NCBI GenBank assembly: GCA_964016885.1
Contig: OZ024745.1
Coordinates: 39,618,001-39,682,000 of the forward strand
Length of the DNA: 64,000 bases
Origin: Eledone cirrhosa
Lineage: Eukaryota
Direction: 5' to 3'
The position numbers were made by a program, and so were the translations under genes. Below the pieces are notes generated by a model. The model did not search any database. It saw only the letters and a program-made list of their open reading frames with translations, and was not told where the DNA came from. Positions 49,543 to 51,004 of this stretch are shown here, one piece after another. The number at the start of each line of letters is the position of its first letter. Position 1 is the first letter of the stretch.

Positions 49543-49593
<51 letters not shown>

Positions 49594-49729
49594 ATAATAA
49601 TAAATTTGAAGACTAAAATCCAAAGAGGGCTCGATAAGGATAAATATATATCAAATATATAAGAACCGTAGAGCAAATATTTATTAAAATAACAGATTAA
49701 AGTTTAAGCAAAGAATCGCTGCTTTCACC

Positions 49730-50023
49730 CAATATAAGTTACACTGGGAGATCATAGCTAGGGCTAGATCGTATAACAGAAATAAAAAACCATGTGACCT
49801 CTGCGCCGCTGAGGCCCTGGAAATTATCTACGCCACAGACCACATCTTAAACAAAAAATCTGAGGCAATTTCGGCTTGTAAACATAAATTGCCAAACCTT
49901 TCCTGTATTACAGCCCCACGTTATACCCTAACGGATAGTACGATCTATACGTGGTTATTTTACGTCTTGATGTCGGAGCTAAGTATATGTTTTGTTTATA
50001 CCTTTACTTATTTGCATAGGTAA
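49730..50023 (+). pseudogene. 5'-truncated PLE GIY-YIG endonuclease C-terminus (probably Naiad-like)
   Basis: QYKLHWEIIARARSYNRNKKPCDLCAAEALEIIYATDHILNKKSEAISACKHK fits the WxI..Y..CxLC..E..LN..E..CxH pattern; not in the ORF track because it has no start codon. Confidence 0.78.
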
Positions 50024-50876
50024 GTATATATTACCCGTATGTTTTGTGAAGGTACGTATACTTTCTTGTACGTATCTTTGATTGTTATGGCGTATAATTT
50101 TATATAATCTGGTACATATGGTTTGGCTATGTGTATACGGGAGTTTTGCGTCTGTGTGAGTATGTTGGTTCGTACGTATGTAGGGTGTGTGTATATGTGT
50201 ACTTCATATTTTGGTTGACTTACGTCTCCGAACATTCGTGTATTTATATGTAGGTATGTGTGTGCGCTTGTTATATACGTATTCATTTATTTATATACAT
50301 TTATATACGTTTATATAATTATTTATTTATATGTATACACGCATACACATACACACATATTTATATGTGCGTGGTTTTGTATACCTATGGTAAGTTTTTG
50401 CGTATGCTTGTGTATGTACGTATTTGTTTGCGTGTATGTATTTATTTATTTCTATTACTTCTGTATTGTATTTATTTACTTTGTTCTTAACTCTGTAGCG
50501 GAGATTCATTCGGTCTCCTTGTTAGAATGTTAGTCTACGACTTCTGCTATACCATTTACGTGGTTTTGTCATTGCGTGCTATTGTTCTCCACGCACCATA
50601 TATGACGTATTATCTTCGTTTTTCTCGTTCATTTTAGAGAACGTCTCTATGCACCACCTAAGAGAACATTAGTCTACGACCTCATTTATACCATAAACGT
50701 GGTTCTGTCTTTGCGCGTAATTGTTTTTCACCGCTCCTATTAATGACGTATTATATTTGTTTTTCCCGTTCTTTGCCAGCGAACGTTTCCACGAACCAAA
50801 ATATCGTCTTCCTGTCTTTCTCCGGTTGCCACGTTTTTTGAAATATCCAGTTCTGCGTTTACAGATTGACTTTGTT

Positions 50877-50927
50877 AGTTTCCGAAGATCCCGTTAAGGG
50901 TGAAAGCAGCGATTCTTTGCTTAAACT
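50877..50927 (+). ncRNA. Hammerhead-like motif (family F), core position 4 = C
   Basis: AGUUU CCGAAGA U CCC guuaa GGG U GAAAGCA gcgauucuu UGC UU|AAACU; full stem III. Confidence 0.6.
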
Positions 50928-50938
50928 TTAATCTGATA

Positions 50939-51004
<66 letters not shown>

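Follow-up and report, generated by a model that had tools for sequence, protein, structure and literature searches.

The broken-off end of an abundant Hydra-group Penelope-like element in Eledone cirrhosa, with a hammerhead core variant, a 3' UTR intron and a possible sense RNA template

Penelope-like elements (PLEs) of the Hydra clade are described (Craig et al. 2021, PMC8557442) as having a C-terminal nuclease and (TA)n targets, together with the motifs RWK, DKT and CxCx5C, no CCHH, and CxxC and CxH around E and N. Canonical hammerheads are reported there as universal in this clade, their function in PLEs being called unclear, and supplement S2 gives CUGA in 25/25 Hydra families, a U-U closure in 13 and a U at the cleavage site in 10. 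Naiads, in contrast, have an N-terminal nuclease and a DKA motif, and an inverted 5' arm with a one-sided tail is a published PLE pattern (PMC8557442). Two internal reverse transcriptase (RT) start sites were reported for PAc, a PLE of another clade (Frangieh et al. 2024, PMC11167929). An antisense template was proposed, and left open, for intron retention and head-to-head inversions (PMC3846280). As to hammerhead variants, a U4C viroid variant was functional in vivo and U-U closures were tolerated, and the passages of PMC3088659 on such variants hold no mention of U4A.

Here we analysed a 64,000-nucleotide stretch of the Eledone cirrhosa genome (the window), and found that one of its insertions is the broken-off end of a very abundant Hydra-group Penelope-like jumping gene, hereafter family F. 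We consider it likely that this copy is a 5'-truncated and inverted Hydra-clade PLE whose template was likely a sense RNA, probably capped at the hammerhead and sometimes spliced, and that cutting by the hammerhead is probably dispensable. We favour the sense RNA template and the dispensable ribozyme because of the U4A core, the spliced copies and a pile-up of 5' ends at position −46.

The window copy opens with an inverted arm (49591..49730, minus strand) that covers the family 3' end from hammerhead stem II (−25) to the long end (+114), contains an 86-nt tail and adjoins (TA)n. Comparison with the natural copy L017 places the junction of inverted arm and body at a 5-bp microhomology, CACCC (49726..49730). 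The 3' end of the ORF follows (49726..49938, plus strand) and holds the C-terminal half of a GIY-YIG nuclease, with W, CxxC, the catalytic E and N, and CxH; the GIY, YIG and R motifs are missing because of the 5' truncation. An earlier reading made from the sequence alone (the sequence-only reading) had noticed an uninterrupted frame here, and a coding-type frame carrying W-x-I, Y, CDLC, E, LN, E and CKH is indeed open at 49688-50023 (111 aa). Its coding part starts only at 49726/49730, its first 12 codons being the antisense of the inverted arm, and its last ~40 codons arise via a 1-nt frameshift after KHKL that carries the frame on to 50023, past the family stop codon, a TAG ending at 49938. 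The 3' UTR that the same reading put at ~0.9 kb is present but measures ~1.0 kb from the true stop. The window copy cannot code for an enzyme, and its body has a mean identity of 92.4% to 25 full-span copies.

A 760-nt GT-AG intron (50020..50779, plus strand) is retained unspliced in this UTR, with a donor GTAAGT after gcatag, a second donor GTACGT after gtgaag at 50052, a pyrimidine tract and a CAG acceptor. The ~140-bp tandem duplication noted earlier was recovered at 50524..50798 (plus strand, ~139-nt period), where 50524-50656 and 50663-50798 share 76% identity and a branch-like ATGAC, the pyrimidine tract and AG each occur in two copies. Downstream lies TTAGTT (50875..50880, plus strand), which we take to resemble the initiator consensus; helix I of the hammerhead begins with its A at 50877 (−46), where the 5' ends of the family also pile up. 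The hammerhead-like motif of the sequence-only reading was also found, as a type I shape at 50877..50927 (plus strand) in which helices I, II and III can form, with the core CCGAAGA, a U-U at the base of stem II and a CUU site ending at 50922. The short 3' end class (+28; 50923..50951, plus strand) follows, and the body passes into its (TA)n target at ~50945-50951, the family end as read before. Two further family-F insertions lie in the window: a minimal fold-back stub in (TA)n at 24739..24818, with the short arm inverted and a tail-only arm direct, and an insertion at 61872..62246 that joins an inverted long-end arm to a 275-bp direct arm with a CAGAAGA core and the short end.

Around the 49591..50951 copy, inverted repeats of 350 bp (47562-47911 and 51301-51650, 94% identity) flank 3.4 kb that hold the copy and several fold-back stubs. 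On the minus and the plus strand, the arms look like coding sequence that has decayed; they may be an older PLE insertion serving as a landing site.

The surrounding genome is 3.0 Gb in size and rich in microsatellites. A search of it with the peptide gave 63,794 first-look candidates, 150 of which were scored, and 20 loci were chosen mainly for long open frames (ORFs of up to 745 codons among those listed). Full-length copies with RT followed by nuclease were recovered, so the proposal that family F is a true coding PLE and the peptide its GIY-YIG C-terminus holds. L017 encodes 709 aa, RT first and nuclease last (residues ~560-700), and the family unit of ~3.25 kb consists of a unique leader of 37-44 nt, the 709-aa ORF and a 1.08-kb 3' part. 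The predicted structure of the L017 ORF (pLDDT 94) had telomerase RT as its best fold match, and the modelled C-terminal 150 aa matched I-TevI (Z 9.3, rmsd 2.4, 89 aligned) as well as T4 EndoII and UvrC, with GIY-YIG nucleases filling most of the next ranks. Pfam returned no match for the window peptide or the full ORF, PF01541 was matched by 1/26 aligned family members, a PDB sequence search with the ORF gave 0 matches, and Foldseek with the nuclease-domain model gave no match at E<=0.001, T4 EndoII and Hpy188I standing at ranks 2-4.

Motif conservation and relatives point to the clade. YRDD was unchanged in 120/120 relatives, while RWR, DKT, CxCx5C, CxxC, E, N and CxH were kept in 114-119 of the 120; at RWR (residue 37), R occurs in 28/120 and K in 88/120, and DKT lies at residue 115. 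In L017 the linker cysteines are C564-C566-C572, followed by C662-C665, E668, N681 and C690-H692; CCHH is absent, and the ORF has one, non-conserved, Cys between GIY and YIG. The relative P0001 is 56% identical to the family F protein, and P0004 (44% identity over 96% of the ORF) clusters with coral proteins and is, compared by eye with the supplement of PMC8557442, nearly the same as the published Hydra-2_Amil. (TA)n adjoins 41/42 scored ends, as it does at the window family-F insertions. Judged by sequence, family F belongs to the Hydra clade of C-terminal-endonuclease PLEs and is a new family within this known clade; identity with Hydra-1_Obim was dismissed by eye, given that N-terminus and hammerhead differ. 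A decayed RT of the canonical PLE type (GLPKVHK, IIAGP) lies beside the family-F copy at L017:1900-2700 (minus strand), and this fragment had no similarity to the Hydra RT.

The sequence-only reading had instead suspected a Naiad-like element, possibly a selenoprotein. Naiads do have (TA)n targeting, inverted arms and tails as well (PMC8557442), and family F resembles them in having no canonical hammerhead core. However, its nuclease is C-terminal to the RT, which by itself excludes a Naiad, the protein of 709 aa has DKT and not DKA and no CCHH, and tandem junctions put the terminal repeat directly upstream of the RT, where an N-terminal nuclease would sit. In-frame TGA occurred 7 times in 22,659 codons (59 aligned pieces), each time in a single copy and never at a motif cysteine among the codons scored, and the ORF stop was TAG in 52/52. 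A simple SECIS pattern of our own had 0 matches in the UTR, and no SECIS was among the Rfam matches there. The lack of a conserved UGA excludes selenocysteine, to which the absence of a match to the SECIS pattern conforms, and the SECIS-like ATGA is explained by the duplication, which doubles the branch-like ATGAC. We give a Naiad-like family F next to no probability and keep to the Hydra-clade assignment.

At least 40,409 exact matches in the genome were counted for the 23-mer that directly follows the hammerhead site. Family F has two fixed 3' ends, separated by 86 nt: at 67 loci taken in list order from these matches, 59/111 pieces ended at +26..28 and 45/111 at +113/114. Among head-to-head pairs from 127 loci, 58/72 combined one short and one long end and 2/72 had the same class twice; the window copy shows exactly this short-end/long-end inverted form with a tail. 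In the one copy checked, a similar short motif follows both ends, the second forming a small hairpin. Partial tandems, inverted 5' arms and a one-sided tail are all present in family F, the tail being 86 nt and not 30-40. The fold-back-plus-tail architecture had been tied to PLE enzymes in the sequence-only reading, and this tie stands for the stubs of family F itself, which are insertion products (58/72 pairs), but not for the other fold-back families of the window, six stretches of which share no DNA with family F. That family F could be their autonomous partner is suggested by analogy only.

Among those other families, a 460-bp perfect fold-back at 49091-49551 has canonical hammerheads at 49455 (plus strand) and 49187 (minus strand), a duplicated 22-nt centre, no DNA in common with family F, and a diverged copy at 58631-58884. 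Both arms of a third-family fold-back (61196-61760) carry CGGAAGA (G4), a copy flanking L017 having CTGAAGA, and this private G4 in both arms suggests a single template for the two. Four canonical hammerheads of one family (5665, 7786, 8277 and 8587) lie on both strands of a long tandem-repeat region, with a spacing of 310 nt between two of them, and possibly form a retrozyme-like or tandem PLE array. A further fold-back at 17244-17549 has Hydra-type canonical hammerheads (U-U closure) nearby, at 17837 (minus strand) and 17921 (plus strand).

Evidence on the template came from the 3' UTR intron. DNA contigs from outside the assembly (one sample in three runs, perhaps the one from which the assembly came) aligned to the full 3' region with skips of 750 and 718 nt, which resolve to GT..AG. 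In the genome, first-donor joins without the intron had 219 matches compared with 2,308 that retained it, a spliced share of 8.7% (~9%) of donor-spanning matches that comes out too high, spliced templates being shorter. Joins from the second donor to the same acceptor occurred in 4 places. The duplication is a doubled acceptor region in which only the second acceptor was seen in use; a single match that had suggested the first proved to use the second. Of the first 100 intron-lacking joins listed, 90 were exact and 10 had four extra bases. The latter, a recurring near-splice join that keeps CCAG before the downstream exon (10/100 listed genome rows; L020), point to a non-canonical acceptor or else to a deletion that was amplified. 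An intron donor well after the stop codon can mark spliced RNA for nonsense-mediated decay; the donor here lies ~80 nt past the stop (49938-50020 in the window), and the spliced RNA could be such a target.

Intronless copies could also go back to a single DNA deletion at the shared AG, or to a few such events, followed by amplification, in which case they would be uninformative on splicing and template strand. Donor and acceptor do overlap by a 2-bp AG, the four extra bases in 10/100 listed joins are non-canonical, and some haplotypes are wholly spliced: in 40 loci taken in list order, one haplotype had 13 spliced and 0 unspliced copies, so that intronless sources may have given rise to some of the spliced copies. 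However, a deletion would not be expected to join two distinct GT donors exactly to the same AG, nor to coincide with a textbook donor and pyrimidine tract. In the same 40 loci, spliced copies shared at least four haplotypes with unspliced ones, and a single clade of the 35 spliced rows was rejected (AU p 4e-7) in a 71-row DNA tree, weakly resolved (8/68 branches well supported) and excluding rows with <300 nt before the donor. We therefore hold DNA deletion to be very improbable and read these joins as splicing. Among exactly spliced arms, 42/45 carry both PLE ends, and TA repeats adjoin 41/42 of these; the copies were therefore made by PLE machinery. Where both donors of an inverted pair were scored, the arms were spliced alike in 9, and in one further pair a short stretch lost beyond the junction made them unlike. 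Sense-strand splicing in inverted-arm copies argues for a sense template in at least part of the family, as far as genomic copies can tell; a search for expression listed no RNA data set that contains the family. No description of spliced or intron-retaining Penelope copies like these was found, the 2003 and 2008 intron papers lying outside the search.

The hammerhead core deviates from the clade at one position. With the flanks fixed, core position 4 was A in 14,778, T in 47, and C or G in 84 of 14,909 exact 33-mer matches, so that A was the state of the amplifying source; the family core is CAGAAGA (U4A), and the C in the window's CCGAAGA is private. A4 also made up 98.7% of the depth in an outside sequencing run and is present in an older subfamily (~83% identity). 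With position 4 left free, a hammerhead scanner classed the motif as type I, and 0/300 UTR shuffles gave such a motif; no second hammerhead motif was found on either strand of the family unit. Rfam had no hammerhead match at 50877-50927, and elsewhere only microsatellite or hairpin-miRNA matches below gathering scores. The hammerhead fold has −4.8 kcal/mol compared with −8.3 kcal/mol for the minimum-energy fold, and folding z-scores were weak. In 66 relatives the scanner found 34 hammerheads, all with U4 (34/34); it found none in the other 32, often short contigs, where other core variants are possible, and its control failed on a mutated copy in this survey and passed in the window/shuffle run. 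A sister family with a canonical core was sought and rejected: most of 931 loose matches are fold-back junctions that make CTGA by accident, largely at a TTC-A-GAA microhomology hot spot, and 28 of the first 30 were not plain colinear copies.

The A4 motif could still be an active natural variant, perhaps protein-assisted, that processes tandem transcripts. All three helices can form around an otherwise intact core, they are kept in the older subfamily while loops II and III differ, and the U-U closure and cleavage-site U are common in Hydra hammerheads (13/25 and 10/25; PMC8557442). Precedents exist in the U4C viroid variant that works in vivo (PMC3088659) and in the PAc hammerhead, which cuts only with protein (PMC11167929). 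On the other hand, U4 is found in 25/25 published Hydra families and in all 34 motifs of the relatives, PAc insertion in vitro is independent of cleavage (PMC11167929), and only 1/104 5' starts lay near the cleavage site compared with 24 at −47..−37; cutting would moreover take off the presumed cap. In ~18/50 listed junctions near the cleavage site (350 in all), one arm starts at +1, which an AAA-C-TTT microhomology explains, but low-level cleavage may occur. Taken together, an active A4 hammerhead seems unlikely to us, and with activity judged from DNA, the motif probably no longer needs to cut. The massive amplification of a U4A family would mean either a natural ribozyme knockout or a new core variant. 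No description of a U4A hammerhead was found in the literature searched, subscription papers being mostly outside it.

The 5' ends of copies point to a candidate start of the RNA. Of 104 starts, 8 were at −46, 24 at −47..−37 and 1 at −1, with the caveat that alignment ends can overshoot. A foreign base directly before −46 had 2,606 genome matches, compared with 930 and 780 at the neighbouring positions, and was G in 53/100 of those listed versus 19/100 and 20/100 at the neighbours. Of 30 junctions inspected at −46, 28 proved true and 20 had G, several of them beside TA flanks; the older subfamily shows the same boundary. Tandem junctions give a leader of 193-208 nt between the −46 A and the start codon, with no ATG in 6/6 scored junctions (8 tried). 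Retrocopies of capped RNA carry an additional G that stems from the cap, and the extra G at −46 would be what a capped start leaves. The G could also be an untemplated addition by the RT, and several may be taken for the partner arm's base or for part of a small hairpin. Splicing into the hammerhead TTAG/TTTCAG as the cause of the pile-up was rejected, as the 40 neighbours inspected proved to be point changes, partner arms or TA flanks and no exon joins.

RT stalling or microhomology-guided joining could produce a pile-up without any capped transcription start, and strong hot spots such as TTC-A-GAA lie nearby, the 24 starts are scattered over −47..−37, and CTGA-GTT-TCAG is able to form a hairpin. 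Neither process would readily give an excess that is position-sharp (3-fold over both neighbours), biased to G and shared with the older subfamily, and the G is also found beside (TA)n flanks and tail arms without a visible template. We judge this origin of the pile-up to be rather improbable and prefer a capped start at −46. AGTY just before the core occurred in 12/32 distinct Hydra relatives with U4 (L306-L382), compared with 40/533 background bins, and the clade as a whole may have a start site at helix I. Given that these relatives keep U4, the start site alone does not force loss of the core, and cap protection as the reason for U4A is weakened. We found no description of a strong stop or untemplated G in Penelope, or of a promoter combined with a hammerhead, in a search outside which the 2003 and 2008 promoter papers lay.

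These observations suggest a copying cycle in which transcription would begin at −46, from a promoter in the terminal repeat; the leader in tandem copies would then measure ~200 nt and have no AUG. The 3' UTR intron would be kept in most templates and spliced out in a minority. The nuclease would nick (TA)n, and the RT would start inside the RNA at either of two sites; with one start site per arm, as extrapolated from PAc, a fold-back with a one-sided tail would result. An RT starting at +28 or +114 near the 5' end would run off and leave stubs of 74 or 160 bp plus the extra G, while longer copies, such as the window copy, would come from RNA with the end region after the body, produced by tandem read-through or by a jump back to the 3' repeat. 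In the window copy, synthesis would have halted in the nuclease coding region, with the arms joined at the 5-bp microhomology. That dead copies record this whole PLE cycle, from capped sense RNA and strong-stop-like stubs of two-site RT to spliced RNA mobilised with true PLE ends and a ribozyme switched off at U4 while the family grew to tens of thousands of ends, is a tentative proposal whose probability we put slightly short of even. If true, intron retention in PLEs would reflect mostly unspliced sense templates and not antisense ones, settled in vivo, and a clade in which hammerheads were considered universal could do without them. The family-wide data thus bear on two questions stated as open, the template strand (PMC3846280) and the role of the hammerhead (PMC8557442).

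The connection drawn here between fold-back stubs and PLE enzymes is ordinary, as clade, inverted arm and tail are already published; the U4A core, the intronless copies and the −46 pile-up were not found described in the literature searched. Naiads, including the selenoprotein families of clam and spider, resemble family F in their bias to (TA)n, their tandem and inverted structures, a very high copy number and the lack of a canonical hammerhead (PMC8557442), but family F has neither their domain order, DKA and CCHH nor in-frame UGA at conserved cysteines, and a SECIS pattern was not found in it. Poseidon PAc of Anolis similarly has two fixed ends that define a tail and an AT-rich target, and its hammerhead is dispensable for insertion in vitro, as proposed for family F (PMC11167929); PAc belongs to a different clade, and in family F, with genomic data only, the two ends, 86 nt apart, both precede the start codon. 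Penelope of Drosophila virilis likewise has a spliceosomal intron upstream of the hammerhead that is mostly retained, and an internal promoter in the terminal repeat (PMC4209133, PMC8557442). Its intron ends at helix I, whereas the family F acceptor lies ~100 nt before helix I, and family F differs in having precisely intronless copies at ~9% of donor-spanning matches. The closest system is the Hydra clade itself (Hydra-2_Amil, Hydra-1_Obim and Penelope-1_HM; PMC8557442), with the same single ORF of ~700 aa, RT then GIY-YIG, the same motifs (RWK/RWR, DKT, CxCx5C, no CCHH, CxxC/CxH around E and N), and the same (TA)n target, type I hammerhead layout, U-U at stem II and inverted 5' arm. The canonical hammerhead is a descriptive and not a defining trait of this clade; it is reported as universal there, whereas family F keeps the layout with a U4A core family-wide. 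The family F unit measures 3.25 kb, compared with 'generally <3 kb' in the clade (PMC8557442), and its hammerhead lies ~920 nt past the stop, compared with 94-340 nt past the coding match in 32/34 relatives. Family F is further set apart from the clade by its 760-nt 3' UTR intron, its 86-nt tail and at least 40,409 exact matches to its 23-mer end.
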